Shown here in pieces: positions 1-31,762 of a stretch of DNA of 32,000 bases. The number at the start of each line of letters is the position of its first letter. Position 1 is the first letter of the stretch. The stretch comes from Nanobdellota archaeon (GTDB lineage Archaea > Nanobdellota > Nanobdellia > Nanobdellales > Nanobdellaceae). The notes beneath the pieces are model-generated. The model saw nothing but the letters and a program-made list of their open reading frames with translations. It had not been told where the DNA came from and ran no database searches. The DNA is taken from the NCBI GenBank assembly GCA_042850255.1, contig AP031373.1, positions 390,001 through 422,000 of the forward strand. Direction: 5' to 3'. The position numbers and the translations under genes were made by a program.

Positions 1-632
1 TTTCCATTGCCTAAGTTTACTAAATATACATCTACTGATTGGTATAATGTAATACTATTAACAAAATGACAAGGAACTATATTACATATAATTTCTCCAT
101 TATAATTTGTAGTACATATTTCATTTCCAGAAATATTTGTAGGGAATAAAAATACAAAAGATTCTTGGGCAGATGATTCATTTTCTAAACAAAAATTATA
201 TACAAAATAGTAAAAGTTAGAATAAAAATTTTCACATATTATTATATTTATATAATTTAATGAAAAATTTACAGAAATAGGATAACTAATTTTTTCACAA
301 TTTCCTATAAAGTTTAATATACCAAATGTATAATTTCCTACAGAAGCTCTAAATGGATAAGGAAATATAGCACATGTAGGCAATTCATTTTGATAATTGA
401 TAGTAAAATATTCTAATTTATTATAGGTTGTATAATATAAAGGATAACTAGGATAACCTAAACAATTTGGAGAGAATAAATCATATAAAATATCTTGAGA
501 GTATGAAAACTCATTTTTTTGAGCATAATTGTATAAATTTAAAGAAGAAAAAATGCTGGTTAATATTATAATACCTATTAAGAATGAAATAATTAGTATG
601 GTAGTAAATATTATAGAGAATTGATTCTTCAT
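1..632 (-). CDS. Pilin-signal-like Cys/Tyr/Asn-rich secreted protein, 3' end runs off the window (absent from ORF track)
   Basis: Hand translation of the minus strand from ATG 632-630 gives MKNQFSIIFTTILIISFLIGIIILTSIF... I checked every in-frame triplet down to position 3 and found no stop. The ATG overlaps the TGA of the upstream gene (ATGA, 629-632). It has the same MKNQ plus hydrophobic N-terminus as its neighbours. Confidence 0.6.
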   Translation of the reverse strand, partial: MKNQFSIIFTTILIISFLIGIIILTSIFSSLNLYNYAQKNEFSYSQDILYDLFSPNCLGYPSYPLYYTTYNKLEYFTINYQNELPTCAIFPYPFRASVGNYTFGILNFIGNCEKISYPISVNFSLNYINIIICENFYSNFYYFVYNFCLENESSAQESFVFLFPTNISGNEICTTNYNGEIICNIVPCHFVNSITLYQSVDVYLVNLGNG

Positions 633-1858
633 TGGTTAATACATTCATTTGGAGTTGGCGGAGTAATAGTTTCTGGACATTGGAATGGAGGTTGACATAC
701 AGGTTCTTGACATCCACAAAATACTCCACCTCCTAGGACACATTTTGAACAAACGTATGGATAATAGTCTATATATTGATAATTTACTATTATTTCATCA
801 TTATTTTCAGAATTACCATTACAGGTTATTCCACTCTGTGAAGAACATGAAGGTTTTTGTTGTGCTAAATTACAAGTATTAGATATAAGAGCTCCTGTAG
901 TGGCATTATAAATATATTGACAATCATAAATACAGTTTAAATATGCATTATATGTTATATTTTCATTATATACTACTGATGATATTGTTATAATTTGAGG
1001 AAATTCATTTCCATCATAATATACATTATATTGACTATCTGTACACGATATACTTACTACACATGCTATATTTCTATTTACACAAACCTGACATGGTATA
1101 TAACATTCATTTGGAGTTTGTATACTTTCACTACATTGTATATATGGATTTCCTGTAAATTCTTCAAATGCTTGGGCACTTATATCACTAGAATAACTAC
1201 CACTTAAAACATTTTGACAATCTTGAAATGATGTATATGGAAAAATAGTGTATGCAAATTGAACTCCTTCATTATATAGATAAAATGCAGGATTATTTAT
1301 TATATTTGCAGTTACTGCAAAGGGTATTAAAGATCCAGTACTACTACTATTAATTATTATATTTACTCCAGTAACTTGCACTGGAAAATCATAATTATAT
1401 TGTCCAGATGTTATTTCATTACAGTCTCCAATTATACCTGCTTCATAATTATCTGTAAATGTAAAATTAACATTATAAGGATAATATAAATTTAATTCAC
1501 TTAAGTCATTAAAGCTTGAATATAAATTAGCTTCATAGTCTCCAGTTAATAATCTATTAAAATAACCTAAAGCTTCATTACATGAAGGAGGAACTATACA
1601 GCCAGGTGGATAAGATGACCACTCTTGTTGGCCCCAGGAAGTTTCGCCAGCGAAATATGAGGTAGAATAAGATTGTTGTATAAAAGATGTATATAAATAT
1701 CCTAGAAAATAATCAGATATAGTATTTAAAGAATTATATCTTACAAATACCTGATTTTGTTGATACCTAAGAGATAATGTATAGAATGTTAATAATATAA
1801 TAATAATTATTATAGATAAAAATAAGATTACGTATATTATTTCTATCTGATTTTTCAT
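629..1858 (-). CDS. Large secreted/surface protein with pilin-type N-terminus, extremely Cys-rich
   Basis: 409-aa ORF. N-terminus is MKNQIEIIYVILFLSIIIIIILL. The mature part has 22 Cys by my count, is rich in Y/N/S/T/P/Q, has almost no K/R, and carries multiple N-x-S/T sequons. No family recognised. Confidence 0.65.
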   Translation of the reverse strand: MKNQIEIIYVILFLSIIIIIILLTFYTLSLRYQQNQVFVRYNSLNTISDYFLGYLYTSFIQQSYSTSYFAGETSWGQQEWSSYPPGCIVPPSCNEALGYFNRLLTGDYEANLYSSFNDLSELNLYYPYNVNFTFTDNYEAGIIGDCNEITSGQYNYDFPVQVTGVNIIINSSSTGSLIPFAVTANIINNPAFYLYNEGVQFAYTIFPYTSFQDCQNVLSGSYSSDISAQAFEEFTGNPYIQCSESIQTPNECYIPCQVCVNRNIACVVSISCTDSQYNVYYDGNEFPQIITISSVVYNENITYNAYLNCIYDCQYIYNATTGALISNTCNLAQQKPSCSSQSGITCNGNSENNDEIIVNYQYIDYYPYVCSKCVLGGGVFCGCQEPVCQPPFQCPETITPPTPNECINQ

Positions 1859-1860
1859 AA

Positions 1861-3063
1861 TTATATTTTAGAGTGAATATATAAAAGTATTAATATTATA
1901 GCTGTAACTACTATACCATGTATTATTCCTAATGCTAGTTGTATATTTGGTAAATAAAATATCGGTAATAAAAATTTATCCATATTTGGAGGCACTCCAA
2001 ATGCAGCTGCTTCCAATAATTCACCTAATATTAATTGAATTATAATTAATGTTCCAATAGTCATACCCAAAGCTTTTTTCAATATTTTTGGATGTTTTTT
2101 ATATAAATTATAATGTAATCCAGAGAAGAATGTAAAAAATGATATTAATATTCTAGTATGTAAGAAAAATGAATAATAGTCATCAAAAGTATAATAGAAT
2201 TCTCCAAATAAAATTATTAAGGAAAGTATAATTAATAAAAAATATACTGTAAAATTTTCTTGTTTATTTAGCATATTTCTATAGACTAATAAGTATATAA
2301 TAAATTCAAAAATTGATATAAATATTAATGAAAATATTGGATAAAATCTCCAATTGTTCGGATTATTATAAATAAATAGTGTAAAATAAATAGCTATAGA
2401 TATTTGGATTAAAATTACAATAAATATTGATATAAATAAATATTTCTTATATTTATTTATATTATTTAATTTAGTTAATGATACATATTCTCCTTCTTTA
2501 TAAATATTTATTAAAAATAATATTATTCCTAAAAATAATATAGATGATTCATATATAATCATAAAAATTAATGGATGAACTATTTTAATATAAGAAAATA
2601 TGCTCATCCAACTTGGAATAGTTACATCAATATCAACTTCATATATTTCAAAAATAGATTCGAAAAAATATGCAAATAAAAATAAGAATAATAAAATAAT
2701 ATATAGATATAAGGATTTTTTAGACAATTTTAATTTATTATTTACTAAAAAGTATCCTGCTATGAATGCAAAAAAATAAAAAAATATGTAGTTGGTTAAT
2801 AAAGCTGTAAGGAAGTCATATTTAATGTTTAATACAAATATTTCTATTATTATTATAAGATAAACGATCTTTAATAAATTATTTTTTGTATATTTTAATA
2901 GATATGGCATTAAAAATAAATAAATTATTCCAAATCCTATTATTAATATTTTAAAGTTCGAAATAAAAATATTATTATAAGTTAAGAATACAAATAATAT
3001 GAATACTAATAAATAAATAGTGTATATAATTACATTAATTTTGGATAAAGAATTCTTTACCAT
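1861..3063 (-). CDS. Polytopic integral membrane protein, unknown function
   Basis: 400-aa ORF made almost entirely of hydrophobic helices (I estimate 10 or more TM segments) with no soluble domain. It sits inside the operon: a 2-nt gap to the downstream gene and a 7-nt overlap with the upstream one. Confidence 0.6.
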   Translation of the reverse strand: MVKNSLSKINVIIYTIYLLVFILFVFLTYNNIFISNFKILIIGFGIIYLFLMPYLLKYTKNNLLKIVYLIIIIEIFVLNIKYDFLTALLTNYIFFYFFAFIAGYFLVNNKLKLSKKSLYLYIILLFLFLFAYFFESIFEIYEVDIDVTIPSWMSIFSYIKIVHPLIFMIIYESSILFLGIILFLINIYKEGEYVSLTKLNNINKYKKYLFISIFIVILIQISIAIYFTLFIYNNPNNWRFYPIFSLIFISIFEFIIYLLVYRNMLNKQENFTVYFLLIILSLIILFGEFYYTFDDYYSFFLHTRILISFFTFFSGLHYNLYKKHPKILKKALGMTIGTLIIIQLILGELLEAAAFGVPPNMDKFLLPIFYLPNIQLALGIIHGIVVTAIILILLYIHSKI

Positions 3064-4589
3064 ACTTTTAATATTGCTACTAAATATCCATTTGCATAAG
3101 GTACACTTGTTGGATAATAAAAGTCGTAAGTATATACATTTACTCCTGGTGGGACTGGATACCCTAAAGTTATACTATTTGATTGCTCTTGTGATATATA
3201 TGCATTCAATTCTATTTCTGTACCATATTTTGTTAAACAATAAACTCTAGCTTCTGCTATACCATTAGATCCGCTATGAGGATCCCAATATGCACCAGAA
3301 ATTATTATATAAGGTACTGAAGGATCTCTATCTAATATTGCCCACCTTGTTATATTAAATTGATATAATCCATAGCTGTAACATGCACCAGGATCGCAGT
3401 TTCCACCTACTAAATATACTAAAGGACATTGTTTTCCAACTATTGTACCGTTTATATCTTCTGTATTATTAAAAACGCCTTGTGGACAGTTGGTTCCATT
3501 ATATGTACATTCTGGGTCTGCTGCTAGAAATATATAATCTGGTTGTCCTGAAGAGTTTACATATGCTATATACAATCTTAGAACTTCGTGCCATGGATAA
3601 TCTATAAATACCTGTTGACATTCTTGTGGTATATACACAGTTCCTCTGTAAAAAGATCCTACAATATCGTTCAAATTATTCGATATTCCTAAATCATATG
3701 CTAGTAGATTTATATTCGTAGCAGTTTTATAAGCGGGAGGATTTACATAGTAATGACCTATACAATATTGATAAAGATTACATCCTCGGAAAAAAGACGG
3801 TAATTTTGTACTAGGAAATGCGGGTACCATATATCCTAAATATAAATCTTGAAAAAGAGCCCATTCTCCATTTGGACAATAAACTGACGCATTTGTAAAA
3901 TTATCACTTGGATATAAATCCGACAATGGTATACAAACATGTTCTTCTAAAGCAGATCCTGTGCATGTAGCCGGAGAATATAATGAACGTATACCCCAAA
4001 GATAACAGGAATCTTGTTGATGAAATGGAGCTGTAGCATTAACCCATCCAGCACCTTTTAATATTAAAAGTTTACCTGAAGGAGAAATTATTTCTGTAGT
4101 ATAATTATTAGTAAAGAAATATGTATAATTCCATTCATACCATTGTACTCCATTGCTATCGCTTGGCGGGTTTATTTGACAACTATCCCAATCATATGAG
4201 TTACCATTAAATAAAAACATTTGTACTAGCCATCCTGTAGCGGATGGCAGAAAATAAATAGTTAAATTCCACCTATCTCCATATATACTATTAAAATAGT
4301 TTGTTATATCTTGAGATATATTTGTGCATGTATATGAATTTATACAATAAGTATCATTTCCAGATGAGGACCAATAAGATAATAAAAAAGCATAAGATAA
4401 ATTTACCGTTTGATCATTTATATAAGGTAATAAAGTTACGCTATTTTGTATAGTAGATTCATATTGATTAACTGGTTGTGTTTGTTTGGAAATTGAATAA
4501 TTATAAGATAATAGAAAATATAATATAAAAGATAAAGATATTAAAGCAGCTATTATTATAAATAAAAGATAATTTATTTGACTCTTCAT
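3057..4589 (-). CDS. Large secreted/surface protein with pilin-type N-terminus, Cys/Tyr/Asn-rich
   Basis: 510-aa ORF. N-terminus is MKSQINYLLFIIIAALISLSFILYF. It has 16 Cys by my count, more than 10 N-x-S/T sequons, and is poor in charged residues. No family recognised. Confidence 0.65.
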   Translation of the reverse strand: MKSQINYLLFIIIAALISLSFILYFLLSYNYSISKQTQPVNQYESTIQNSVTLLPYINDQTVNLSYAFLLSYWSSSGNDTYCINSYTCTNISQDITNYFNSIYGDRWNLTIYFLPSATGWLVQMFLFNGNSYDWDSCQINPPSDSNGVQWYEWNYTYFFTNNYTTEIISPSGKLLILKGAGWVNATAPFHQQDSCYLWGIRSLYSPATCTGSALEEHVCIPLSDLYPSDNFTNASVYCPNGEWALFQDLYLGYMVPAFPSTKLPSFFRGCNLYQYCIGHYYVNPPAYKTATNINLLAYDLGISNNLNDIVGSFYRGTVYIPQECQQVFIDYPWHEVLRLYIAYVNSSGQPDYIFLAADPECTYNGTNCPQGVFNNTEDINGTIVGKQCPLVYLVGGNCDPGACYSYGLYQFNITRWAILDRDPSVPYIIISGAYWDPHSGSNGIAEARVYCLTKYGTEIELNAYISQEQSNSITLGYPVPPGVNVYTYDFYYPTSVPYANGYLVAILKVW

Positions 4590-5104
4590 CTTAAAATAAT
4601 ATATATTACTATTGCGCCTACAATTACGCCTATTGCTATATAAATGTATTCATAGTAATTAGATTTTTTTGTGGTAACCTGATTTGTATTAGTAGTAATA
4701 TTTAATGTTGTTGTATTTTCTATTATAAAATCTACATATGCGCTTTGTGGTATTAAACTAATAGGAGATATTAATGTACCATTTGGATATTCGCAATATG
4801 AAGCATTTATAGTATAATTACCAACTTCTATCGTTTTAATTACTGGAGTTAAATTATAATGTGCACAGAATGAATATTGACTAGGTACTAGATTATTATA
4901 ATAATCTATTGCATTAAATACATGCCCATCTACAATACAATATTGTCCAGATGAATTATAATAAAATTCTCCTCCTCCATATGTACAATATACTGCTAAA
5001 GGATTTCTTGTCGGATATATGAATTTTAAAAGCATCAAAATTGTTAAAATAATTAAGAAGTATTTTATTATTTTTTTAATCATTATATATTTATCAAAAG
5101 ACAT
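4586..5104 (-). CDS. Secreted tandem DUF333-like protein with C-terminal TM anchor
   Basis: 172 aa. It has an N-terminal hydrophobic signal. RNPLAVYCTYGGGEFYYNSSGQYCIVDGHVFNAIDYY resembles the DUF333 pattern (NPAxxYC..GG......G..C...dG). A second Cys pair follows (FCAH...YCEYPNGTLIS). The C-terminus is a TM helix ending in Arg. It is a paralogue of 5539..6390. Confidence 0.55.
   Translation of the reverse strand: MSFDKYIMIKKIIKYFLIILTILMLLKFIYPTRNPLAVYCTYGGGEFYYNSSGQYCIVDGHVFNAIDYYNNLVPSQYSFCAHYNLTPVIKTIEVGNYTINASYCEYPNGTLISPISLIPQSAYVDFIIENTTTLNITTNTNQVTTKKSNYYEYIYIAIGVIVGAIVIYIILR
4858..4961. repeat. 104-bp perfect repeat, copy 1 (inside DUF333-like gene)
   Basis: AATGTGCACAGAATGAATATTGACTAGG...CCAGATGAATTATAA is identical to 6171-6274. 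The flanking blocks (about 4770-4800 vs 6076-6110, and 4965-4995 vs 6278-6310) are similar but not identical. Confidence 0.85.
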
Positions 5105-5116
5105 ATATATAAATTT

Positions 5117-5542
5117 TTATTGATTATATGTAACATTTTCAGCTATTTCTGACGACGATGTTATATATATTATATTATTATCTTTCGCTATATATATATT
5201 ACCAGGGTCTAATAAAAAAGAAACAGGTTGATCATTATTATTTAATAATATAACCTGTTGGTAAAAGTTTATAGTATAATTTACATTATTATAATCGATT
5301 ATCAAATAATTATTATTAGAATATAATATAACATTATTTGGTACATTTATTTGTACATAATAATTTCCATAAGAATTTTCCATTGATATTGCAAGATTCT
5401 GTAAATTTTGTAAGAATATTTTAAACTGTTCTTCTTGTTGATTTTTTTGTACATTATAAGAATAACTAAAGTATATAGCAAAAGACAAACCTATAATTAT
5501 TAGTATTATGCCTACATTTAGAAAACTTATTTGATTTTTCAT
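5117..5542 (-). CDS. Small pilin-like protein
   Basis: 141 aa. N-terminus MKNQISFLNVGIILIIIGLSFAIYF is followed by a short beta-rich-looking domain. It has a 4-nt ATGA overlap with the upstream gene. Confidence 0.55.
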   Translation of the reverse strand: MKNQISFLNVGIILIIIGLSFAIYFSYSYNVQKNQQEEQFKIFLQNLQNLAISMENSYGNYYVQINVPNNVILYSNNNYLIIDYNNVNYTINFYQQVILLNNNDQPVSFLLDPGNIYIAKDNNIIYITSSSEIAENVTYNQ

Positions 5543-6390
5543 TTTAAATAGAATAGTAAAATAATTAAACCTACAATCATTACTACTATAGTAATTACTA
5601 CAGGTATTATATAACCACTATTGCTATTCGTACTTTCATTATTTATTCCTTCATTTTCAGTTATAATTTGATTTATTTGCTGATTTGCACTACTATTTGT
5701 TTGATTTACATATATACAAGTAAACTCTCCCAAACAATTTACTTCTACCTTATTAGGTGGTGGACAAGTTTCTAAAAAGTTTTGATATAATTGTTCTAAT
5801 GAATAATTTTGTGGACATAAATACCATGGGCTATAAGAACCATTACATGTGCCACATCCTATTTCTTCTTGATAATTATTAAGTATTTGGTAATATAAAG
5901 TTATATTTCCATTGTATAAACTATAAGGAATATAAGGAGGATTAAAGCATGGATAAACTACATTAGAACATTCTTCTACTTCCCATGGAGTATTTGGACA
6001 TTGTAATATATTAGAACAAGATATATTATTTGTTATAACATTTTCTTGCTGGTTAAATTCTGAAAATATTTGATATGGAGATATTAATGTACCATTTGGA
6101 TATTCACAATAATAATAAAATATTGTATAATTATCTATAGTTATATTCTCTTTTACTAAATTTAATCCAAAATGTGCACAGAATGAATATTGACTAGGTA
6201 CTAGATTATTATAATAATCTATTGCATTAAATACATGCCCATCTACAATACAATATTGTCCAGATGAATTATAAAAAAATATTCCTCCTCCATATATACA
6301 ATATAATTTATATATATCTTGAGAATGTAAATTGAATAAATAAGCTAAAATAATAATTAAAAAAAATAATAATAATACTTTTTTCATCAT
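5539..6390 (-). CDS. Secreted DUF333-like protein with extra Cys-rich region and C-terminal TM anchor
   Basis: 283 aa. Sec-type signal MMKKVLLLFFLIIILAYLF. The block YCIYGGGIFFYNSSGQYCIVDGHVFNAIDYYNNLVPSQYSFCAH is near-identical to 4586..5104. It ends with a C-terminal TM helix ending in Lys. Confidence 0.55.
   Translation of the reverse strand: MMKKVLLLFFLIIILAYLFNLHSQDIYKLYCIYGGGIFFYNSSGQYCIVDGHVFNAIDYYNNLVPSQYSFCAHFGLNLVKENITIDNYTIFYYYCEYPNGTLISPYQIFSEFNQQENVITNNISCSNILQCPNTPWEVEECSNVVYPCFNPPYIPYSLYNGNITLYYQILNNYQEEIGCGTCNGSYSPWYLCPQNYSLEQLYQNFLETCPPPNKVEVNCLGEFTCIYVNQTNSSANQQINQIITENEGINNESTNSNSGYIIPVVITIVVMIVGLIILLFYLK
6171..6274. repeat. 104-bp perfect repeat, copy 2 (inside DUF333-like paralogue)
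   Basis: Identical by eye to 4858-4961. It encodes SSGQYCIVDGHVFNAIDYYNNLVPSQYSFCAH in both genes. Confidence 0.85.
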
Positions 6391-8126
6391 GTATTTACAC
6401 CTACTACAGCATACATATCGCTTGGGAATGTACTTCCATATGGAGTACTAATTTCTGAAGCATAAGGAACATATAAATACCCGTTCTTCATCCAATATAC
6501 ACCAATACATGGTTGTCCAATTACCTGTGTACATTGTTGTGGGTTTTGGAAAAATTGAGCACATTCTTGTGGAGTTACATAATCTGGTGCCGCAGCATCT
6601 CCAGCTATTAAGATACATGCTGTTAAATCTCCCCATTGATTCTCTATTATCCAACATCCAGGTACCCCATATACTTCTTGACAAGTTTGTGAATTATCAT
6701 TAAATCCTACTAATAATGTAGCATGTCCTGCTTGCTGACCTTCTCCTAAATATCCTCCAATTACTAATGGTCCATAACACATTAAATCATATTTTATCTG
6801 AGTAGTATTATTAGGATTTGCAGATATTGGTACAATTTGTTGTGGATAATATAATGTATTAGATGTATCTTGACATGTATATCCACAAACATCTGATGAA
6901 TATGATAAAGCACTTGAAGGTGGTGTACATGATGCTAAAGTACCATCATATTTATTGTCTTCATTATCTAAGGATAATCCATATTGTTGTGCATATAATA
7001 AAGGATAATATATAGTACCACCATTACATCCAAATTGGTTTCCACTGCATATGCCGTTTTGTGAATTACAACATGTAGCTAATTGATATGCAGATGGATA
7101 TAGATCTTGATTTGGTTGATTGTTATATATCATATATGCAGAAATTATACCATTTCCTGTAGCAAATGCCCAACAGTCTCCACAATCTCCTTGATTTTGT
7201 ATTGGGGGTATATAGCTATTTCCGTTTATATCTCCCCAGAAGAAATATGACTGTCCGTTATATTGATATAGACAAGGACCGCTTGTATTTGGAGGTGGTA
7301 ATGGACTTGGACCTGGAGAAGGTCCAGGTGATGGAGAAGGTGATGGAGGTGGTGAAGGACTGGGAGAAGATTGAATATTTAATGTAAATGTAACAGATGC
7401 AGATTTGCTTTCATTATCTGTTGCATAATAAGTAATTGAATAAGAACCTGGAGATATTGAACTAGAAGTACTTATTGTAGATTGAATAGAACAGGAACTT
7501 GAAGTTATACAATATGTTGGGTTTATACTACAAGATATTCCTGAAGGAGCATTGCATGAAAAAGAAATATTATAATCTCCGTTCATAGATTCTTGTGCAG
7601 TTAATGATATAATAATATTATTTCCGGGTTGTAATGTAGCTTCTGATTGGTTTAAAGAAAGAAAAAGAGTATTTGATACAGGTTGATAACTTTGTTGTCC
7701 TAAATAAATTACTATACTAGTTGGAGAATTCTTTTTAACTGTTAAAGGTAATTCTTCATATGGCTCTCCATAGTACAAAGTATAATAATATCCAGAGTTA
7801 TAATACTGAATTAAATTATTGGAAGTATTTATATAAACACTGCATTCTGAAGTATAATTATAATAAGTATCATATACATAACAACTAATAGTATTTCCAT
7901 TCGCTGAAACATAATTTAAATATTTGTTTACCTTAAAATTAATATACATAGATGACCCTTCATTAGAATAGCATAATTGTTGTATAGTATTAAATAAGTT
8001 TTGACATTCTGATATGTCCATATAAACTTCCTGAGTTTGGTAGTTTATACTTGAAAACTTAAAATATAAAAATAGTGACAACCCAAAAACTATTATACTT
8101 AATATTATCCAAAACCATTTTTCCAT
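6387..8126 (-). CDS. Membrane-anchored papain-family (C1) cysteine peptidase with beta-sandwich-like domain and Pro/Ser linker
   Basis: 579 aa. N-terminal TM is MEKWFWIILSIIVFGLSLFLYF. A pilin-like small domain and a Ser/Thr-rich repeat-like domain follow, then the linker SSPSPSPPPSPSPSPGPSPGPSPLPPP (DNA about 7291-7370). The papain motifs are QNQGDCGDCWAF (Cys codon 7173-7175), GHATLLVGF (His codon 6723-6725) and IIENQWG. Confidence 0.75.
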   Translation of the reverse strand: MEKWFWIILSIIVFGLSLFLYFKFSSINYQTQEVYMDISECQNLFNTIQQLCYSNEGSSMYINFKVNKYLNYVSANGNTISCYVYDTYYNYTSECSVYINTSNNLIQYYNSGYYYTLYYGEPYEELPLTVKKNSPTSIVIYLGQQSYQPVSNTLFLSLNQSEATLQPGNNIIISLTAQESMNGDYNISFSCNAPSGISCSINPTYCITSSSCSIQSTISTSSSISPGSYSITYYATDNESKSASVTFTLNIQSSPSPSPPPSPSPSPGPSPGPSPLPPPNTSGPCLYQYNGQSYFFWGDINGNSYIPPIQNQGDCGDCWAFATGNGIISAYMIYNNQPNQDLYPSAYQLATCCNSQNGICSGNQFGCNGGTIYYPLLYAQQYGLSLDNEDNKYDGTLASCTPPSSALSYSSDVCGYTCQDTSNTLYYPQQIVPISANPNNTTQIKYDLMCYGPLVIGGYLGEGQQAGHATLLVGFNDNSQTCQEVYGVPGCWIIENQWGDLTACILIAGDAAAPDYVTPQECAQFFQNPQQCTQVIGQPCIGVYWMKNGYLYVPYASEISTPYGSTFPSDMYAVVGVNT

Positions 8127-8157
8127 ATATCTTTATAATGCTATATAATATAAAAAA

Positions 8158-8565
8158 TTATCCTTGTAGATTTATATATACATATTGTCCATTTGAGTAA
8201 ACTAATATATAATCACCTGGATTTATTGTATAATCACAGTTTTTAAATAGAACATTCGGATCTATACTTAAAATAGTATTTAATAAATCTTGACATGTAA
8301 ATGGGCTACCTTGGTAATTTATTAAATAACATAAACCAGATGCTTTTTTATCATAACAAGATATAACATCAAAAGCTACTGTATTCATAGAAGAAACATT
8401 TAATTCTACAACAGTTTGAGTATTGTTGTATGAAGGTAATGTATGATTTAAATAAGATGTAATATTTCCTTTAAAGTAATATATTATTCCTACAATAATT
8501 AATGTAGCAATTATCCCTATTATTATTAAAAATGTTAAATTTATAGGCATTTCCTGACTTTTCAT
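8158..8565 (-). CDS. Small pilin-like protein
   Basis: 135 aa. N-terminus MKSQEMPINLTFLIIIGIIATLIIVGIIYYF, then a small domain with 4 Cys. Confidence 0.55.
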   Translation of the reverse strand: MKSQEMPINLTFLIIIGIIATLIIVGIIYYFKGNITSYLNHTLPSYNNTQTVVELNVSSMNTVAFDVISCYDKKASGLCYLINYQGSPFTCQDLLNTILSIDPNVLFKNCDYTINPGDYILVYSNGQYVYINLQG

Positions 8566-8595
8566 ATTTTTAATATAATTCTTGTTAATTTATAA

Positions 8596-9078
8596 CTATT
8601 GCCATACAACTATCTGACTATTATTGTATATTATAAATATGCTTTCATATGGTATCAAAGTTTCATAATGACTTACTGGTAAATTAAAAATTAGATCATA
8701 AGGATTAAAGTTTGTATAATTTACTATAAAACTATATATAGTTGAAATGTTTAATACTACATCTTCATCTATATATACATCATAACATATACTAAATAAT
8801 CTATTAGTATTTATATTATTATTATAGCAATTTGCAACTAATCCTGCAAATTCAGAGTATATTTCATCTTTACTTTGATTTGTAAAAATGACATTTATTG
8901 CAGATGGATAATATTTTGCACATTCCGGGGAAAATCCACCTTCCGATATCAAAGTTTTACAATAATACAATTGAGAATTTGCAAAGAATTTTGTATATAT
9001 AATATCTAGTATTACAAATACTGATATTACTGCTATTATTATTATAAATATCGTATCTAGTGCAATATCATTCTTCAT
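8596..9078 (-). CDS. Small pilin-like protein
   Basis: 160 aa. N-terminus MKNDIALDTIFIIIIAVISVFVILDIIY, then a small Cys-containing domain. Confidence 0.55.
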   Translation of the reverse strand: MKNDIALDTIFIIIIAVISVFVILDIIYTKFFANSQLYYCKTLISEGGFSPECAKYYPSAINVIFTNQSKDEIYSEFAGLVANCYNNNINTNRLFSICYDVYIDEDVVLNISTIYSFIVNYTNFNPYDLIFNLPVSHYETLIPYESIFIIYNNSQIVVWQ

Positions 9079-9359
9079 ATATAACTAATATTACCTTCAT
9101 AAATATATATTATTCTGTATCCTTCAGGTATAATAATACCATCAATTGTACAATTCTGAACTAAATAAACTTTTTCATTTATCACTTTATAGTAACTCTC
9201 ATTATATAATTGATATAATTGATTACAATTTATAGACATTATATTATTACTATCTATATTATTTTTTAGATTAAATAAATATCTAAATGCAAAAAAAGTT
9301 GCTACTACTATTAATATAAAACTAATTATAGTCCAGTATATATATCCTTGACTCTTCAT
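9075..9359 (-). CDS. Small pilin-like protein
   Basis: 94 aa. N-terminus MKSQGYIYWTIISFILIVVATFFAF. It has ATGA overlaps with both flanking genes. Confidence 0.5.
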   Translation of the reverse strand: MKSQGYIYWTIISFILIVVATFFAFRYLFNLKNNIDSNNIMSINCNQLYQLYNESYYKVINEKVYLVQNCTIDGIIIPEGYRIIYIYEGNISYI

Positions 9360-11326
9360 AATTGTATTGTTGTTGGTAAATATGGGCCAAATATTGTATA
9401 AACTGCTATTATTCCTATTATTGAAAATATAAAATAAAATATAGTTCCAGTTATAAGATTTTTTCCTATATAATATGAAATCATTGTATTATCGAATCCA
9501 TACTTAATTCCTGCAGTCATAAAGGATGTTATAGCTACATATTCTATAAAAAATATTCCTATAATTGCCTCAAAATAAGTTGGTGGGATTAAATTATATA
9601 AATTAAATGTATTTACAACAAAGCTAACTAAACTAAATGATCCACCTAGTCCTAGTGATTGGCTTATCATTTGGAAAAAATAAGCAATTGCAAATAATAC
9701 AGAAACTATAGCATTATTGAATACAGTTACTAATGAAGAAATAAATGGAATTAAATCTCTAGAAGTCATATCTAACATACTAATAATTTCATTTAATATT
9801 TTTCTAATATTATATCTTATATTAATAACATTTTCTAAGTTATAGGATATATTATAAGTAATCTGAGATAAAGCTTCTGGACCCTTTACTATTGAGTATA
9901 CAATTAATTGCATAGTTTCTCTTATTAATTTAGATGGGTAATAATTTAGAGAACCAACTTTTTTATCAAATATTGATGATATCAAATCATAACCTTTTCT
10001 TAAATTATATAATGTTATTTTTAGAAATCTCTCCATTACTCCAGAAGATTTTATTATTTTATAATTTTCATAAGTTTTTTGTACAACAATTTCCATTGGA
10101 TATCCATCCTCTAAAAGTGATGCAAATTCATAAGTAACTATTGGAAACTCGTTTTCCATTTCTTCTATCTGATTTATTTTCTTTACCTTTTGAAAAGAAG
10201 TTAAATAATAGTAAGAACCTACTCCTAATCCTAATCCTAATGGTAGCATTAGTGTTAAAAATGAATAAACTATTGCCCTATCTTGATAAACTATATTAAG
10301 ATAACCATTTAAATCTCCCGGAGGTAAATATAGTATAGATAAAGATAAAGTAATTAGGTGATAAATTCCTATTATAGATAAAGAACCTAAGATTATAGAA
10401 ATAATAATAGCTGGAATTTCTTTATTTCCTACTTTAAATTTTCCTGGTTTTGGTAAATCTTTAGCTAATGATAGATCTGGTGTAGAAAAAGCAAATGGAT
10501 TTTTAGATAAAAGATTCTGAGCAATTAGAACTGTTATAATTGGTAGTATAATTATATAACTAAATGCTATAAAATAAAAACTTACAGTACTCAATAGAAA
10601 TACAGATAATATTGGTAGCATGATTAAACTTACTAATGGCATCATTACCAAAAATGATACAATAACTGTAGCAGGTTCTTTTAATTCATCTACATATGAT
10701 TGAGATTTTTCTAAAGATTTTTTTAGTATCCAATTTAATATTCTATCTACTATTTTATTTATTTCTTCTATAGAATTTTTATATTTAATATTTACTAAAT
10801 GAGTCATTGCATATACAAAATCTGGATTTAAATAGAACCATCTATATTGATAAAATTGTAATGCAGATTCTATATCTTTAAATCTATTTGTTTCTAAATC
10901 ATAAACTAATTTTTTGAAATCATCTGCTAATATGCCTTTCATATAGTATGCTACATATTGTATAGCTCCTTCTAAATTAGGATTTCTTTTTATATATAAT
11001 GCTAAATATAATATGATCCAAATAGCCTCAGAAGTTACCTGTATTTTTGCAATTTGTGTATAAAATATTGGATAATACATTAAATAAAAATCTAATATTA
11101 GTAAAGAAATAAACAAAGAAAAAGCTAATTGAAAGGATATAAAATTTAATACAAAAAATATAACTATAGAGAAGATAAGTAGTGATATAGTAGAAGAAAA
11201 TATTTTGTTAGGATCTGTATTTAATTTATTTAACCATAAATGGAAAGCATATATTTTATATAATCTATCTGGTGCTTTTAATTTTATTAAATTGAAATTA
11301 TTGTAAAAATATTCAAAAAAAGACAT
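9356..11326 (-). CDS. FlaJ/TadC/PilC-like polytopic membrane platform protein (two T2SS-F-like cytoplasmic domains)
   Basis: 656 aa. TM clusters alternate with two roughly 100-aa helical soluble segments. One starts at PIFYTQIAKIQVTSEAIW...NLEGAIQYVAYYMKGILADDFKKLVYDLETNRFKDIESAL. The other starts at EMENEFPIVTYEFASLLEDGYPMEIVVQKTY... Both follow the T2SSF pattern (x-lp-l-ll-G-sl-al, g-l-ef-i, g-al). Size and topology match archaeal FlaJ/TadC. The call rests on pattern recognition only. Confidence 0.6.
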   Translation of the reverse strand: MSFFEYFYNNFNLIKLKAPDRLYKIYAFHLWLNKLNTDPNKIFSSTISLLIFSIVIFFVLNFISFQLAFSLFISLLILDFYLMYYPIFYTQIAKIQVTSEAIWIILYLALYIKRNPNLEGAIQYVAYYMKGILADDFKKLVYDLETNRFKDIESALQFYQYRWFYLNPDFVYAMTHLVNIKYKNSIEEINKIVDRILNWILKKSLEKSQSYVDELKEPATVIVSFLVMMPLVSLIMLPILSVFLLSTVSFYFIAFSYIIILPIITVLIAQNLLSKNPFAFSTPDLSLAKDLPKPGKFKVGNKEIPAIIISIILGSLSIIGIYHLITLSLSILYLPPGDLNGYLNIVYQDRAIVYSFLTLMLPLGLGLGVGSYYYLTSFQKVKKINQIEEMENEFPIVTYEFASLLEDGYPMEIVVQKTYENYKIIKSSGVMERFLKITLYNLRKGYDLISSIFDKKVGSLNYYPSKLIRETMQLIVYSIVKGPEALSQITYNISYNLENVINIRYNIRKILNEIISMLDMTSRDLIPFISSLVTVFNNAIVSVLFAIAYFFQMISQSLGLGGSFSLVSFVVNTFNLYNLIPPTYFEAIIGIFFIEYVAITSFMTAGIKYGFDNTMISYYIGKNLITGTIFYFIFSIIGIIAVYTIFGPYLPTTIQL

Positions 11327-11331
11327 TATCT

Positions 11332-12078
11332 TTAGGATATGCTATTTAGCTGTGGATATGGTATATTTAATAAGAATTGACACAATGGTACTGGTGTGTT
11401 ACCATTCATATTTAATGCAGGACAGTTTCCTACAACGTATAATATTTCATTAGTAACATTCAGATTTAATGTACAGTTATAATTTGTATTATAATAGTCT
11501 AATACCTTTAGCAATGCTAAGAATACCTGATTTGTTATCCATGTTGGAGTTGTAGAAGAACAAGCTTGTGGTCCTGGATATAATAATTGTGATGGAGTAG
11601 AGAAATATATATTTTCTTGTAATGTTGTTGCGTTAAATATAGTAGCTGGTGAATAGTTACCAAATACCAATGAAGTAGCAGTTACAGAATCATACTGTAA
11701 ATTATCTATATAATTCTGACATTCTAGATACATACAATCTAGTGGAGATACAGGATATCCCTGGTATTCACACTGATTATTTCCTCCATATAATTGTAAT
11801 GCCACACTACATGGTACAGAATTTGCACATAAATAATAACCTGGTTGTGGCTCTACAATTCCATTTCCTATGCTTACATATTTTGAACAGAAATCTATAT
11901 AGCTATTTTGACATGCACTTACACATTCACTAACTGCTTGTTGTTTTTCTGTGTTAGAAATTTGAGAAATATGTGAAGCTTGTTGTTGAAATAATTTTAT
12001 TACTATTACTGCTACTACTAACATTATTATTATTACGAAGATCAATTCTACTGCCATATCTACAGCCCTCTTCTTCAT
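11332..12078 (-). CDS. Pilin-like protein with Class-III-signal-like motif (first gene of the array), Cys-rich
   Basis: 248 aa. MKKRAVDMAVELIFVIIIMLVVAVIVI resembles the archaeal class III signal pattern (basic, small residue, then x-S/M-x-E-L/F-hydrophobic). The mature part is Cys/Tyr/Asn/Pro-rich with sequons. Confidence 0.55.
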   Translation of the reverse strand: MKKRAVDMAVELIFVIIIMLVVAVIVIKLFQQQASHISQISNTEKQQAVSECVSACQNSYIDFCSKYVSIGNGIVEPQPGYYLCANSVPCSVALQLYGGNNQCEYQGYPVSPLDCMYLECQNYIDNLQYDSVTATSLVFGNYSPATIFNATTLQENIYFSTPSQLLYPGPQACSSTTPTWITNQVFLALLKVLDYYNTNYNCTLNLNVTNEILYVVGNCPALNMNGNTPVPLCQFLLNIPYPQLNSIS

Positions 12079-12100: not shown

Positions 12101-12110
12101 ATTTATAAAT
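12101..12110 (-). promoter_or_regulatory. TATA-like box for the 12078..1 array
   Basis: ATTTATAAAT is centred about 27 nt upstream of ATG 12078. The same geometry is seen at other operon heads in this window, which implies a leaderless or near-leaderless mRNA. Confidence 0.35.
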
Positions 12111-12113
12111 TTA

Positions 12114-12521
12114 TTAATAATGTATTATAAAAAGAAGCTCTTTACCTTCTATTAATTTTTCAATTATTTTTCTATTAATATCTCTAGCGCTTTTATTAGA
12201 GTATATTGCTAATGTTCTGTTATCTATATAATTACTTTTTCTTATTACTATACTTTTTTCATCTGATAATTTTAAATTTTTTGACCCGTATGCTATTAGA
12301 TTATCAATTAAATCATCCACCTTTATTTCTACTTTTATTCTTCCTTCATCTAATAAATATTCTTTTAGATCTAATGGTATATCTTTTACTGAATGAGTAG
12401 AGTTAATACCTATTATGCAATCTCCTCTCTCTGTTAAAAAATTTTCTTTTGTTATTTCTAAAGTAGATTTATGAGTTGCCTTAATTAACCTATCTCCCTT
12501 AGCACTTATTACTAATTTCAT
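12114..12521 (-). CDS. DUF371-family protein
   Basis: 135 aa. KATHKSTLEITKENFLTERGDCIIGINS matches the conserved DUF371 core (THxTTxEiTke..LT.RGDCIiGv) as I recall it. Confidence 0.5.
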   Translation of the reverse strand: MKLVISAKGDRLIKATHKSTLEITKENFLTERGDCIIGINSTHSVKDIPLDLKEYLLDEGRIKVEIKVDDLIDNLIAYGSKNLKLSDEKSIVIRKSNYIDNRTLAIYSNKSARDINRKIIEKLIEGKELLFIIHY

Positions 12522-13353
12522 TTAAGTATTCCAATATTCTTCTAGTTACATTTTTACCGACATATTTTTCAAATCCTTCATATTGAAATATATTATGTAC
12601 ATCTATAAGATAATAATTATCATCTTTTATTAATACATCATATGCAAATATTTGTAAATCTGCTTTTTCCATTATTTTATATCCTATTTCCTTTAATTCT
12701 TCATCTATTTCATAAGGTTTTCCATAGGCTCCTTGACTTATATTTCCTTTAAAATTATTTTCATTTATTCTTTGCATACCTCCAAAAGGTTCGTTAATGA
12801 ATATAACTCTAATATCTTTTTCATATGGTATATATTTTTGAAAGATCAAAAATCTAAGATTTCCTCTTTTATTTATTAAATAATCCTCTAAAAATCTATA
12901 TAATTCTTCTTCATTATTTATTTTATATACAAATTCTCCTCTATGTATCAATTGATGTTTTATTATCATTGGAAATCCTATTTTCTTAATTACATGTTCT
13001 ATATTATCTAAAGAATATATTTTAGCAAACTCTGGTATATTTACATATTTATATAATAGATGATAAAACATTGCTTTATACATTATAGTTTCCTTTACAT
13101 GTATTCTATTTACAACATTTTTTCCATTATCATATAAAAACTTAGCTAGTAGATGTGAATCGTAGGAAGCTGTTGCTCCGACGAAAAAATAATAAGTATC
13201 GTAATTTAGTATCTTGCTTTCTTCAAATGGAAATATTTCTATTTTATCCATTTCTAATATCTCTATATTATCAAAATTTCTTACCTCTTCCTTGATTCTT
13301 TTTATCCTATAATCGTCAATATCTTTTCTTATTAGTATAGCTATTTTGTTCAT
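12499..13353 (-). CDS. ATP-grasp fold ligase (RimK-like)
   Basis: 284 aa. An N-terminal pre-ATP-grasp region is followed by GFPMIIKHQLIHRGEFVYKINNEEEL, FIFQKYIPYEKDIRVIFI and a C-terminal YLIDVHN-type segment, typical of RimK/LysX/MptN-like ligases. The substrate cannot be assigned. Confidence 0.55.
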   Translation of the reverse strand: MNKIAILIRKDIDDYRIKRIKEEVRNFDNIEILEMDKIEIFPFEESKILNYDTYYFFVGATASYDSHLLAKFLYDNGKNVVNRIHVKETIMYKAMFYHLLYKYVNIPEFAKIYSLDNIEHVIKKIGFPMIIKHQLIHRGEFVYKINNEEELYRFLEDYLINKRGNLRFLIFQKYIPYEKDIRVIFINEPFGGMQRINENNFKGNISQGAYGKPYEIDEELKEIGYKIMEKADLQIFAYDVLIKDDNYYLIDVHNIFQYEGFEKYVGKNVTRRILEYLNEISNKC

Positions 13354-24504: not shown

Positions 24505-25231
24505 TTAATATTTAATTTGGCATTTTTCGCAATAGAAGTTTATTCTATTTCTTTTTCCACTTTTATTTATTTTTATTTTATTCCCGCAATAATAACAATA
24601 TCTTTTTCTATAACATAGTAAAATATCTTTTAATCTTTTATTTTCTTTTCTTATATTATAAAATTCTATCGAAAAATTTCTAACATTATTTAATAATTCT
24701 ATTAATTTTTCTTCAGGAATATTTTTTGAAATACTCTCTGGGATGTATTTTTGATCTAAATAAACTTTCAACTTTTATTATATTTCCCACACCTGGTAAT
24801 ATTTTCTGATCTAATAAATCATCGCATATATAATTTTCACTATTTTTTAAATATTCCAATACTGGTTTATAATCCCAATCTTTATCCAATATATCTCTAT
24901 AATCCTTTTCTATTTTATCTACTAAATTTATTGAACAATTATAGAAAAATAATTCATCATTTTCAAATTTTAATGCCAATCTAATATATTTATCATCTTT
25001 TTTCTTTATATTTATTGAATAGGATCCATACATTAGAAAATGTATTCTTAATATTTTACTATTATCTAGGTAAATTAATAATAATTTCCCATAAGAATCT
25101 ATATTTATTATTTTTCTATTTTTTATATCTTTTAAATTTATTTTCTTAGTATTTCCATAAGCATCTAATATTTCTTTTCCTATAAATATGTATAATTTAT
25201 CTAATATACTCCTCACTGATGGTCCTTCCAT
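24505..25231 (-). pseudogene. Fpg/Nei-family DNA glycosylase interrupted by a 1-nt frameshift
   Basis: ORF 24713..25231 carries a Nei-like N-terminus (MEGPSVRS) and the H2TH motif (LLDQKILPGVGNIIKVESLFRSKIHP). ORF 24505..24771, in another frame, carries ...SISKNIPEEKLIELL and the Fpg zinc finger CYYCG...RINFYCEKCQ. Deleting one G from GGG 24740-24742 gives the continuous reading KIHPESISKNIPEEK. Confidence 0.7.
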
Positions 25232-29570: not shown

Positions 29571-30149
29571 ATGGTAAAATGGATTGAAATTGAATACCAA
29601 ATATATGATGAAAATGGTGCTTTAGTAGAAAAAACAAACGAACCTGTAATTTTACCTTTAGGGTATGGAATATTGAACAAAGAAATTGAAGAAAAATTAG
29701 CATCTTCTGAATTTGGAAAAGAATATAATTTCTTATTAAAAAGACCTTTTGGAGAAAGAAATCCAGATTTAGTGAAAATTATACCTATATCTGAATTTTA
29801 TAAGAGAAATATAAATCCTGTACCAGATTTAGTTGTAAATGTAGATGGAGCAATTGGAATTATAAGATCTGTAAATAGTGGAAGAGTTATTGTTGATTTT
29901 AATCACCCATATGCTGGTAAAGATTTACTATATGTAATAAAATTAAATAGAGAAGTTACAGATTTAAAGGAAAAAATTATTGGAATATTAAGTATTACTT
30001 ACAATATATCTAAAAATAATTTTGAAGTAAATATAGATGATAATAATAAAAAAATTGTTATTAATGTTAAAGATCTAAATTTAAGTAAGGAACAAAAAGA
30101 AATAATAAAAAAGTTTATACCTGAGATAAAAGATTATAATATAGAGTAG
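29571..30149 (+). CDS. FKBP-type peptidyl-prolyl cis-trans isomerase (SlyD-like)
   Basis: 192 aa. IEYQIYDENGALVE, VIVDFNHPYAGKDLLYVIKL is the FKBP/SlyD signature (vDfNHPLAGk.L.f). An IF-like insert lies between the two halves. Confidence 0.8.
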   Translation: MVKWIEIEYQIYDENGALVEKTNEPVILPLGYGILNKEIEEKLASSEFGKEYNFLLKRPFGERNPDLVKIIPISEFYKRNINPVPDLVVNVDGAIGIIRSVNSGRVIVDFNHPYAGKDLLYVIKLNREVTDLKEKIIGILSITYNISKNNFEVNIDDNNKKIVINVKDLNLSKEQKEIIKKFIPEIKDYNIE

Positions 30150-30221
30150 GGCCCGTAGCTTAGTTGGTAAAGCGTCGGGCTCTTAACCCGAAGATCGGGG
30201 GTTCGAATCCCCCCGGGCCCG
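30149..30221 (+). tRNA. tRNA-Lys (anticodon CUU), no encoded CCA
   Basis: Hand-folded cloverleaf. Acceptor GGGCCCG/CGGGCCC. D arm GCTT-AGTTGGTA-AAGC. Anticodon arm TCGGG-CTCTTAA-CCCGA. Variable loop AGATC. T arm GGGGG-TTCGAAT-CCCCC. Discriminator G. The first nt is the last nt of the upstream TAG stop. Confidence 0.9.
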
Positions 30222-31139: not shown

Positions 31140-31508
31140 TTATTTATGCTTTTTATATTCTTTTAATAATTCTTCATCAAATGTTTCTAAATTTGTATTT
31201 AACCTTAAAGCGGTATGTAATATTATATAATCGTTAAATTCATCATAACTTTTTGGTTTATTATTTATTGAAAAAATTATATCTTCTATTGAATTATCTA
31301 CAAATTCTACTTCTTCAGAATATAATAGATCTTTTATTATTGATAAATCGATATTGCTTTTCTTTAATATATATGTTAATTCTAAAATAGTTACTGTAGT
31401 CATTATTATTTTATCATATTTATTTATTATTTCTACAGCTTTTTTATGATTAGTATCATTTTTAACTAAATATGAAAATATAACGTTTGTATCTAATATT
31501 GAAATCAT
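31140..31508 (-). CDS. vapC: PIN-domain toxin VapC
   Basis: 122 aa. It has the MISILDTNVIFSYL start typical of PIN domains plus downstream acidic residues. It overlaps the upstream antitoxin gene by 4 nt. Confidence 0.8.
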   Translation of the reverse strand: MISILDTNVIFSYLVKNDTNHKKAVEIINKYDKIIMTTVTILELTYILKKSNIDLSIIKDLLYSEEVEFVDNSIEDIIFSINNKPKSYDEFNDYIILHTALRLNTNLETFDEELLKEYKKHK

Positions 31509-31762
31509 TTCTTTTCTATTTTATTTGTTAGTTCATTTATTATTTCATTAATTTCCCTATCAATATCCATACTTTTTATATTTGTACTTTCTATTATTCC
31601 TTCTAAATCTTTTAACTTTTTTCTTTTAGGTATTATTTTTATTTCATTATTATCATAAATCACAATAACTTTATCACCAATTTTTATTCCTAGTTCTTCA
31701 GCTATAATTTTTGGTATAGTAATTTGATAATTCCTAGTAACTTTTACTTCTTGCATTATCAT
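31505..31762 (-). CDS. vapB: AbrB/SpoVT-family antitoxin VapB
   Basis: 85 aa. VKVTRNYQITIPKIIAEELGIKIGDKVIV is the swapped-hairpin AbrB motif. A TATA centre lies about 27 nt upstream of the ATG. Confidence 0.8.
   Translation of the reverse strand: MIMQEVKVTRNYQITIPKIIAEELGIKIGDKVIVIYDNNEIKIIPKRKKLKDLEGIIESTNIKSMDIDREINEIINELTNKIEKK

Follow-up and report, generated by a model that had tools for sequence, protein, structure and literature searches.

We analysed a stretch of DNA 32,000 nucleotides (nt) long, hereafter called the window, from the Nanobdellota archaeon YN1 (GenBank assembly GCA_042850255.1, contig AP031373.1, positions 390,001 to 422,000 of the forward strand). Its left end is occupied by an array of 13 genes, designated g1 to g13, which is described here as a candidate type IV filament (TFF) locus. 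An open reading frame (ORF) listing combined with a script run on the window places all 13 genes on the minus strand, read in one direction. Every product of the array is annotated as hypothetical, and the G+C content of the window is about 25%. Coordinates below are those of the window, and lengths are in amino acids (aa).

11332-12078, minus strand: g1, 248 aa
9356-11326, minus strand: g2 (YN1_4460), 656 aa
9075-9359, minus strand: g3, 94 aa
8596-9078, minus strand: g4 (YN1_4440), 160 aa
8158-8565, minus strand: g5, 135 aa
6387-8126, minus strand: g6, 579 aa
5539-6390, minus strand: g7, 283 aa
5117-5542, minus strand: g8, 141 aa
4586-5104, minus strand: g9, 172 aa
3057-4589, minus strand: g10, 510 aa
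1861-3063, minus strand: g11, 400 aa
629-1858, minus strand: g12, 409 aa
1-632, minus strand: g13, at least 210 aa, cut by the window end (214-216 aa in relatives)

The junctions from g1 to g13 measure, in order, 5, -4, -4, 30, 31, -4, -4, 12, -4, -7, 2 and -4 nt. Seven of them are overlaps, six of 4 nt and one of 7 nt, and the others are gaps of 2-31 nt. This layout reproduces the one given in an earlier reading made from the letters of the window (hereafter the sequence-only reading), as does the presence of a TATA-like box ahead of the first ATG. Three boxes were located in the array.

12102..12109, minus strand: TATA box TTTATAAA, at -31..-24 from the g1 ATG; likely promoter, leaderless transcript
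8588..8595, minus strand: TATA-like box TTATAAAT, at -30..-23 from the g5 ATG; possible internal promoter
8147..8154, minus strand: TATA box TTTATATT, at -28..-21 from the g6 ATG; probable internal promoter

About ten genes of the window have a TTTA[TA]A box that starts 28-31 nt ahead of their ATG (upstream of g1, g6, 21556, 22398, 23036, 24346, 27088, 27758, 27968 and 31762). Because so many genes share this spacing, the g1 box is credible and not mere AT-rich noise, and leaderless transcription is suggested to be the norm in the YN1 genome. The g5 and g6 boxes fall within the only two 30-31-nt gaps of the array. Since boxes stand before g6 (-28) and g5 (-30) inside these gaps, the array probably comprises at least three transcription units, with at least two internal promoters, and not one operon. 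Co-transcription of all 13 genes is therefore doubtful.

The second gene, g2, encodes a polytopic protein devoid of Cys, for which direct scans gave no Pfam or NCBIfam match. Its close homologues (56-86% identity) are confined to Nanopusillaceae, and distant ones (25-32% identity) occur in Aenigmarchaeota, Diapherotrites and other DPANN archaea, none of them with a precomputed Pfam domain. A profile built from 19 homologues was used to delimit the family, with counts given as cluster representatives. It retrieved 1343 representatives at E <= 1e-3, of which 554 remained at E <= 1e-30; almost all representatives are 620-750 aa long and matched over the full length. The product of g2 itself is a full-length member, with E down to 1e-280. 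Among 46 sampled family members, 26 match PF00482 (T2SSF; best E = 1.1e-10) and eight match Spore_III_AB, which is related to T2SSF. The T2SSF score exceeded the gathering threshold in three of ten re-checked members. Alignment with the matching members allowed two domains to be mapped onto g2.

10619..11008, minus strand: first T2SSF-like domain of g2, residues ~107-236, mapped from P0120 (36.2 bits), P0165 (42 bits) and P0153 (28.8 bits)
9728..10129, minus strand: second T2SSF-like domain of g2, residues ~400-533, mapped from the T2SSF match in P0040

When the family profile was compared with PDB, the top match was the cytoplasmic domain of GspF/EpsF, located in the second domain and not significant alone (E = 0.82). 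The AlphaFold2 (AF2) model of g2 is all-helical, with a predicted local distance difference test (pLDDT) score of 85 and a predicted template modelling (pTM) score of 0.82. A full-length Foldseek search of this model against PDB gave no informative match, the best being the PilC model in 3jc8 (probability 0.60, E > 0.01). By transitive homology, g2 is best regarded as a divergent two-domain platform of the T2SSF/FlaJ/TadC type. The FlaJ/TadC-like character proposed for the 656-aa protein in the sequence-only reading is in this way borne out through its family, with no direct Pfam match. It is distinct from the archaellum FlaJ listed elsewhere in the YN1 genome (PMC11420986).

The genomic setting of the family was inspected in distant DPANN loci. 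Three of them (L011, from Woesearchaeota, L013 and L015) encode a T2SSE ATPase of 751-772 aa immediately upstream of the platform homologue. Neighbours of the platform in L004, L011 and L013 begin with textbook class III signals, such as MKG/LSGYIL, MKG/IAWIIV, MRKG/ITTWL, KKRG/QELST and NKRG/QIEMS (the slash separates residues -1 and +1). Large Cys-rich proteins are among the signal-bearing neighbours in the same three loci; they measure 351, 693 and 826 aa and contain 16, 38 and 58 Cys, respectively. L004 encodes a pair of platform paralogues as well as ParA/MinD, and a ParA/MinD gene is present also in L013. In L006 and L014 the platform gene stands almost alone. Because T2SSE ATPases and neighbours with class III signals accompany the platform in distant DPANN loci, the g2 family belongs to bona fide loci of type IV filaments. 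Proteins that are large, disulfide-rich and equipped with pilin signals are a recurrent component of loci of this platform family and not peculiar to YN1. The co-occurrence of large Cys-rich and small pilin-like proteins with a common signal, pointed out in the sequence-only reading, is thus seen in YN1 as well as in distant loci. The term "undescribed surface apparatus" used there is too strong for what looks like a divergent member of the type IV filament superfamily.

Giant Cys-rich proteins with class III signals were mapped at 12361-16962 in L013 and at 1-9138 in L004. A 669-aa Peptidase_M23 protein is encoded in a distant locus that has a second platform paralogue.

Eight products of the YN1 array carry N-termini of comparable design.

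g1: MKKRA/VDMAVEL, with a hydrophobic helix; 12 Cys
g3: MKS/QGYIYW, pilin-like; 2 Cys
g4: MKN/DIALDT, pilin-like; 4 Cys
g5: MKS/QEMPINL, pilin-like; 4 Cys
g8: MKN/QISFLN, pilin-like; 0 Cys
g10: MKS/QINYLL; 16 Cys
g12: MKN/QIEIIY; 22 Cys
g13: MKN/QFSIIF; 8 Cys

In g3, g4, g5, g8, g10, g12 and g13, the start M-K-[N/S]-[Q/D] is followed by about 20 hydrophobic residues. Such a start occurs in seven of the 13 array products and in none of the 24 other genes of the window (Fisher p = 1.7e-4). Residue -1 is Ala in g1, Ser in g3, g5 and g10, and Asn in g4, g8, g12 and g13, and Gln is found at +1 in six of the eight signal-bearing products. A Gln at +1 is typical of Epd pilins processed by EppA.

Signals of orthologues were compared in four other Nanobdellales genomes. 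Those of g1 read KRS/IEMAVEL, RRG/IDMAVQL and KRG/IDMAVEL, so that Ala, Ser or Gly occupies -1. The g3 orthologue in N. aerobiophila begins with MKA/QNIQ. For g5, N. aerobiophila has the canonical MAMKG/QEMPVNL and another genome has KN/Q, at the place of KS/Q in YN1. The N-terminal 49 residues of g4 align with a canonical MKG/IALST protein adjoining the L004 platform gene (E = 3e-8). Over all orthologues, the -1 residue is G, A, S, N, T, L, V, E or Y, and the +1 Gln is almost invariant. The g10 family was aligned as 36 sequences, comprising the YN1 protein and 35 homologues with 49-74% overall identity to it. In this alignment M1 is invariant, K2, Q4, I5 and N6 are at least 90% conserved, the first 4-6 residues outrank the remainder in conservation, and each of the 35 homologues begins with M-[KR]-[NST]-[QD]. 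As orthologues keep KG/Q, KA/Q and RG/I at the same place, the YN1 motif appears to be a degenerate class III leader of three residues, with the -1 Gly replaced by Asn, Ser or Thr (in relatives also by Leu, Val, Glu or Tyr). The pilin-like nature ascribed to the short N-termini in the sequence-only reading, including the g1 motif, accordingly holds as derivation from class III signals.

The largest product that starts with this motif, g10, has 40 homologues, all of them in Nanobdellales (including MJ1_0107 and Nst1_645). As proposed for the large Cys-rich proteins, its structure was predicted. The AF2 model (pLDDT 76.7) comprises a helix at residues 2-34, a low-confidence linker, and alpha/beta and beta-rich domains. 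In a Foldseek search against PDB, the best matches were PA14 lectin domains of the yeast flocculins Flo1/Flo5 (E = 7e-4, probability 0.9, template modelling (TM) score 0.36), followed by MSCRAMM adhesins and a carbohydrate-binding module. These matches are suggestive, if weakly so, of a glycan-binding adhesin module in the modelled beta domains. An N-terminal module of about 100 residues is common to g10 and g12 (hhalign probability 88.6%, E = 2.6e-6). A module shared by g12 and g13 was not supported by hhalign (29.7%), and neither g1 nor g12 gave a sequence match in PDB.

The product of g6 is membrane-anchored and contains 25 Cys. Its N-terminal module is followed by an Ig-like region, which a Pro/Ser linker joins to a papain-type protease. 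The N-terminus of g6, MEKWFW, is without the K-x-Q motif. The protease domain is the only significant family-model match among the 13 products in Pfam and NCBIfam scans.

6627..7217, minus strand: Peptidase_C1 domain of g6, residues 304-500; PF00112, E = 6.4e-18, 66.1 bits against a cutoff of 20.7

Alignment of g6 with cathepsin H shows QGDCGDCWAF, GHA and ENQWG to be kept, and the catalytic Gln, Cys, His and Asn are therefore present. The papain fold named in the sequence-only reading is confirmed, with the catalytic residues intact.

Genes g7 and g9 were described earlier as two tail-anchored DUF333-like paralogues. Their paralogy is real (BLAST E = 1e-37, composition-corrected). The product of g7 has a Sec-type signal, a DUF333-like N-domain, a Cys-rich ectodomain and a C-terminal anchor, and that of g9 is DUF333-like with an N-terminal Sec-type signal and a C-terminal anchor. 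Because a Sec-type signal is combined with a C-terminal anchor, both are predicted to be type I membrane proteins and not strictly tail-anchored. The DUF333 model (PF03891) scores 14.4 bits in g9 (E = 0.049), below the cutoff of 25 bits, and g7 has no match. Orthologues of g9 reach 22.6 bits in L002 (E = 1.3e-4, over the whole 47-residue model) and 16.6 bits in L010, against the same cutoff. The matches are consistent, yet all of them are sub-threshold, and for g7 they come through orthologues only.

The product of g11 is a conserved protein with about 11 transmembrane segments, no Cys, and conserved His and Glu motifs. It was considered as a divergent prepilin peptidase and rejected: its profile has no match to FlaK or any other PDB entry, and neither a GxGD motif nor a conserved first Asp is present. 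In relatives, a paralogue of g11 (g14, 345-348 aa) lies just past the position corresponding to the left window end, with an arginase-family gene on the opposite strand beyond it (L010 20781-21818; L012 18401-19447). It keeps the His-containing transmembrane motifs, lacks the GxGD motif and was likewise negative as an A24 peptidase. With this paralogue beyond the left window end in relatives, the array is probably 14 genes long.

A high content of Cys distinguishes the array from its surroundings. Non-polytopic array products contain 3.8% Cys, against 0.48% in the other genes of the window, which is an eight-fold difference. Counts in array products are even (2, 4, 4, 4, 8, 12, 14, 16 and 22), and the 25 residues of the protease correspond to 24 plus the catalytic Cys. 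Because of this frequency and the even counts, the array ectodomains fit disulfide-bonded extracellular proteins.

The order of the array and its setting are kept in five Nanobdellales genomes: YN1, N. aerobiophila MJ1 (at about MJ1_0103-0115), one metagenome-assembled genome (MAG) of Nanopusillaceae and two of Nanopusillus. The shared setting comprises the RNA polymerase operon, a RimK-type ATP-grasp gene, a DUF371 gene, the array and the arginase-family gene. Synteny was among the checks suggested for the sequence-only reading and is in its favour, although it is modest evidence by itself because the five genomes are close relatives. The platform and the pilin-like genes are strictly kept, whereas the architecture of the protease and the number of DUF333-like genes (one or two) vary; g4 and g10 are restricted to Nanobdellales. 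In L009, L010 and N. aerobiophila (L012), the protease domain resides in a 502-528-aa protein with a pilin-type MKR[NYV]/Q N-terminus homologous to g8, and the N-module of g6 forms a separate gene of 140-146 aa. In L002 the protease domain is deleted. The regions corresponding to window positions 6387-8126 are 13135-15198 in L009, 13135-15142 in L010, 10917-12884 in L012 and 13201-14075 in L002. The protease gene has thus been rearranged among close relatives, with a fusion to the g6 N-module in YN1, a pilin-type fusion in three and loss in one. The RimK-type ATP-grasp and DUF371 genes, which overlap by 23 nt, lie at 12114-13353 on the minus strand of the window, co-directional with the array and 35 nt upstream of g1, and accompany it in all five genomes.

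On the features of the platform and the signals, we regard the array as a probable type IV filament locus of Nanobdellales, one that is cryptic, strongly diverged and similar to the loci of archaeal type IV pili. From these features we infer the following course. The product of g2 would form a membrane platform with two T2SSF-like domains, and g1, g3, g4, g5, g8, g10, g12 and g13 would be inserted into the membrane through the short basic leader M-[KR]-x and the hydrophobic helix. A leader of 3-5 residues would then be removed by a class III signal peptidase that is encoded elsewhere or not yet recognisable. A T2SSE-type ATPase, also encoded elsewhere, would dock on g2 and drive extraction of the helices into a pilus or a short pseudopilus. 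The small proteins (94-160 aa) may represent the core or a priming complex. The products of g1, g10, g12 and g13, and in relatives the protease, would be modular pilins that show adhesin- or lectin-like and proteolytic modules outside the S-layer, with the type I proteins g7 and g9 and the polytopic g11 as accessory membrane parts. The most probable role of such a structure would be to recognise the glycosylated envelope of the host, adhere to it and proteolyse it locally. The report of Jarett et al. that Nanoarchaeota possess several type IV pilus-type systems under diversifying pressure fits this interpretation (PMC6142677). YN1 itself has FlaI among its archaellum genes (PMC11420986).

Several observations weigh against a filament locus. 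Pfam and NCBIfam scans gave no match to T2SSF, pilin or Class_III-signal models in any of the 13 YN1 products, so that among the models named in the sequence-only reading Peptidase_C1 alone was recovered and DUF333 stayed below threshold; DUF361 was also without a match in the Pfam scan of the array products. BLAST paralogy among the pilin-like proteins is lost under composition correction, g7/g9 excepted. In the g10 model, the N-terminal helix stands apart from the globular part and is not packed as in structural pilins, and the lectin-like fold match of this protein is weak. Known A24 (class III) peptidases accept G, A or S at -1; the residues N, T, L, V, E and Y are outside this set, and cleavage of the signals may therefore not occur. 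A T2SSE ATPase was found neither in the array nor within 10 kb of it in the five Nanobdellales genomes, and no A24 class III signal peptidase (PibD/FlaK/EppA) was found in the window. No A24 peptidase was reported in two nanoarchaea either (Makarova 2016, PMC4858521).

The same observations could mean that there is no assembly system at all, the N-termini being uncleaved signal anchors, g2 a relic or repurposed T2SSF-like protein, and the array a cluster of anchored surface proteins such as adhesins and a protease. The missing direct matches to pilin or T2SSF models, the absence of ATPase and peptidase in cis, the non-canonical -1 residues and the two nanoarchaea reported without an A24 peptidase (PMC4858521) all agree with this explanation. 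We nevertheless regard it as unlikely. An invariant M1 and at least 90% conservation of K2, Q4, I5 and N6 in the g10 family would be needless in a plain signal anchor, and orthologues retain the canonical KG/Q, KA/Q and RG/I. Moreover, g2 is conserved at 56-86% identity, with no Cys and its two-domain architecture intact, and homologous platforms occur in complete TFF loci elsewhere.

Hallmarks of Epd-type pili are Gln at +1, the dedicated peptidase EppA and two platform genes. The Epd pilus, or "system 1", of Methanococcus maripaludis and DPANN archaea served as the set for comparison with archaeal TFF systems (Makarova 2016; Sivabalasarma & Albers 2026 preprint). Shared with it are a platform of the T2SSF type, the +1 Gln, and a cluster of small pilins together with larger class III signal peptide (SPIII) proteins that have adhesin or sugar-binding domains. 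The distant homologous loci with a T2SSE ATPase adjoining the platform, and L004 with its two platform genes, add to this likeness. The YN1 array differs in its single long two-domain platform, invisible to Pfam, in having no ATPase or dedicated peptidase in the locus, in -1 residues that are mostly N, S or T instead of G, and in giving no DUF361 or Class_IIIsignal match. It also adds a papain-type protease, DUF333-like type I proteins and two paralogous polytopic proteins.

Pilus loci of the Thermoproteales subclade 4E (Makarova 2016) resemble the array in the multiple conserved Cys in almost all components, in additional membrane proteins, and in large signal-peptide proteins that were read as adhesins or minor pilins. 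They encode a MinD/ParA-type ATPase in the locus, as do the distant DPANN loci L004 and L013; none is present in the YN1 array. They also differ from it in their own secretion ATPase and in other pilin families. Among bacterial modular pilins (PilB and PilC of Streptococcus sanguinis, and large minor pseudopilins of the GspK type), a pilin N-terminus is similarly grafted on a lectin or adhesin module displayed on a filament. These belong to another domain of life, are without sequence homology to the array products, and have a different signal (G/F...E5 is absent from YN1). No precedent for a protease module on a pilin-type N-terminus was found in the literature searched.

The sequence-only reading had seen in the array the logic of the Sulfolobus bindosome and not that of a simple fibre. 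According to this explanation, the platform and the small pilin-like proteins would form a short surface pseudopilus holding lectin-like, Cys-rich and protease cargo, with no long fibre. By analogy, the Bas system of Sulfolobus/Saccharolobus (pilin-like BasABC, ATPase BasE and platform BasF) is comparable in its small pilin-like proteins with a platform, and in large functional proteins that have a pilin-type signal and a helix-linker-domain layout. In YN1, the large functional proteins bear the same signal as the small ones, and the protease of three relatives carries a pilin-type N-terminus. The g10 model, in which a disordered linker separates the helix from the domains, resembles Sulfolobus binding proteins and is unlike a packed pilin. 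SPIII-tagged functional proteins are, furthermore, reported to be widespread in archaea (preprint 10.64898/2026.04.22.720090).

On the other hand, Pfam and NCBIfam scans disclosed no solute-binding domain and no ABC transporter in the array products. What these do contain is a papain-type protease, a lectin/adhesin-like beta domain and Cys-rich domains. In YN1 the cargo is encoded within the locus and is not ABC-linked, whereas the cargo genes of Sulfolobus are not in the bas operon. A platform gene stands beside small pilin-like genes in YN1, and a BasE-like ATPase is absent in cis. Large adhesin-like or minor-pilin proteins are already common in true pilus loci, and the proposed bindosome logic is inseparable from that of an ordinary archaeal type IV pilus locus whose minor pilins or adhesins are large (PMC4858521). 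Fibre and pseudopilus cannot be told apart from sequence alone. We therefore regard a bindosome-like display as possible, although not as the expected outcome.

YN1 is an obligate ectosymbiont of Sulfurisphaera ohwakuensis and has a cone-shaped attachment organelle with an intercellular filament, the genes for which are unknown (PMC11420986). Gaisin et al. described a 15-nm rough appendage and a 7-nm tube with no genes assigned, and nanotube genes were stated to be unknown in the YN4 study. The survey of surface proteins in N. aerobiophila took in only proteins with detectable signal peptides. Surveys so far have been limited to recognisable signal peptides or recognisable TFF genes, and the array slips past both filters. 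In the literature searched no mention of its locus tags was found.

A further candidate role for the array is in the attachment organelle of Nanobdellales, where it could supply structural components of the cone lattice, of the portal or of the intercellular filament or tube (7-8 nm). It could otherwise supply those of the rough appendage of 15 nm or of the nanotubes. Cryo-ET has revealed such structures in YN1, N. aerobiophila and YN4, with genes unknown (PMC11420986, PMC11104419, preprint 10.64898/2026.06.04.730037). The array is kept in YN1 and N. aerobiophila, with g4 and g10 confined to Nanobdellales. Besides a filament-assembly platform and a protease, its products include many extracellular proteins rich in disulfides. 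However, the platform family is far wider in DPANN than the known range of the cone organelle, and part of the tube is located in the host cytoplasm, for which known type IV filaments offer no parallel. The link from locus to structure is speculative, and we judge this assignment improbable.

A bolder form of the filament interpretation, to which we give some credence but would not subscribe, combines these elements. The locus would build a host-interaction structure of Nanobdellales (the 15-nm "rough" appendage, nanotubes or the 7-8 nm intercellular filament) by means of degenerate [KR]-x/Q signals, in which x is often Asn, with non-canonical processing or none, and with an orphan ATPase acting in trans. 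Lectin-like adhesins and a papain-type protease would in this manner be delivered to the host envelope.

TFF systems, SPIII-tagged functional proteins and Cys-rich pilus components are already known. New are a locus that standard models do not detect and that is annotated throughout as hypothetical, a degenerate signal motif, the lack of an ATPase in cis and a papain-type protease on a pilin-type N-terminus. We regard the array as a concrete candidate for host-contact structures, with a defined list of 13-14 candidate proteins, and a DPANN-wide platform family accompanied by very Cys-rich pilin-signal proteins exists. It also raises the biochemical question of how signals with Asn, Thr or Leu at -1 are handled in a lineage in which no A24 peptidase was found. 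The arrangement of a protease on a pilin, if real, would represent a novel means by which an enzyme is presented to the host surface.

The remaining genes of the window are of housekeeping character, and include the RNA polymerase operon, ribosomal proteins, FtsZ, NusG, a Xer recombinase and VapBC. An Fpg/Nei-type DNA glycosylase is apparently split at 24505-25231 on the minus strand. Its first part is a 172-aa ORF (24713-25231) with the Fapy_DNA_glyco domain and only the first half of H2TH, and its second part is an 88-aa ORF (24505-24771) in another frame, with a 59-nt overlap and a zinc-finger-like C-terminus. The split could be due to a frameshift, a pseudogene or a sequencing error. A tRNA-Lys(CTT) gene at 30149-30221 begins at the last base of the stop codon of an FKBP-type gene, and the VapBC toxin-antitoxin pair (PIN/MazE-type) is located at 31140-31762, near the right end of the window.

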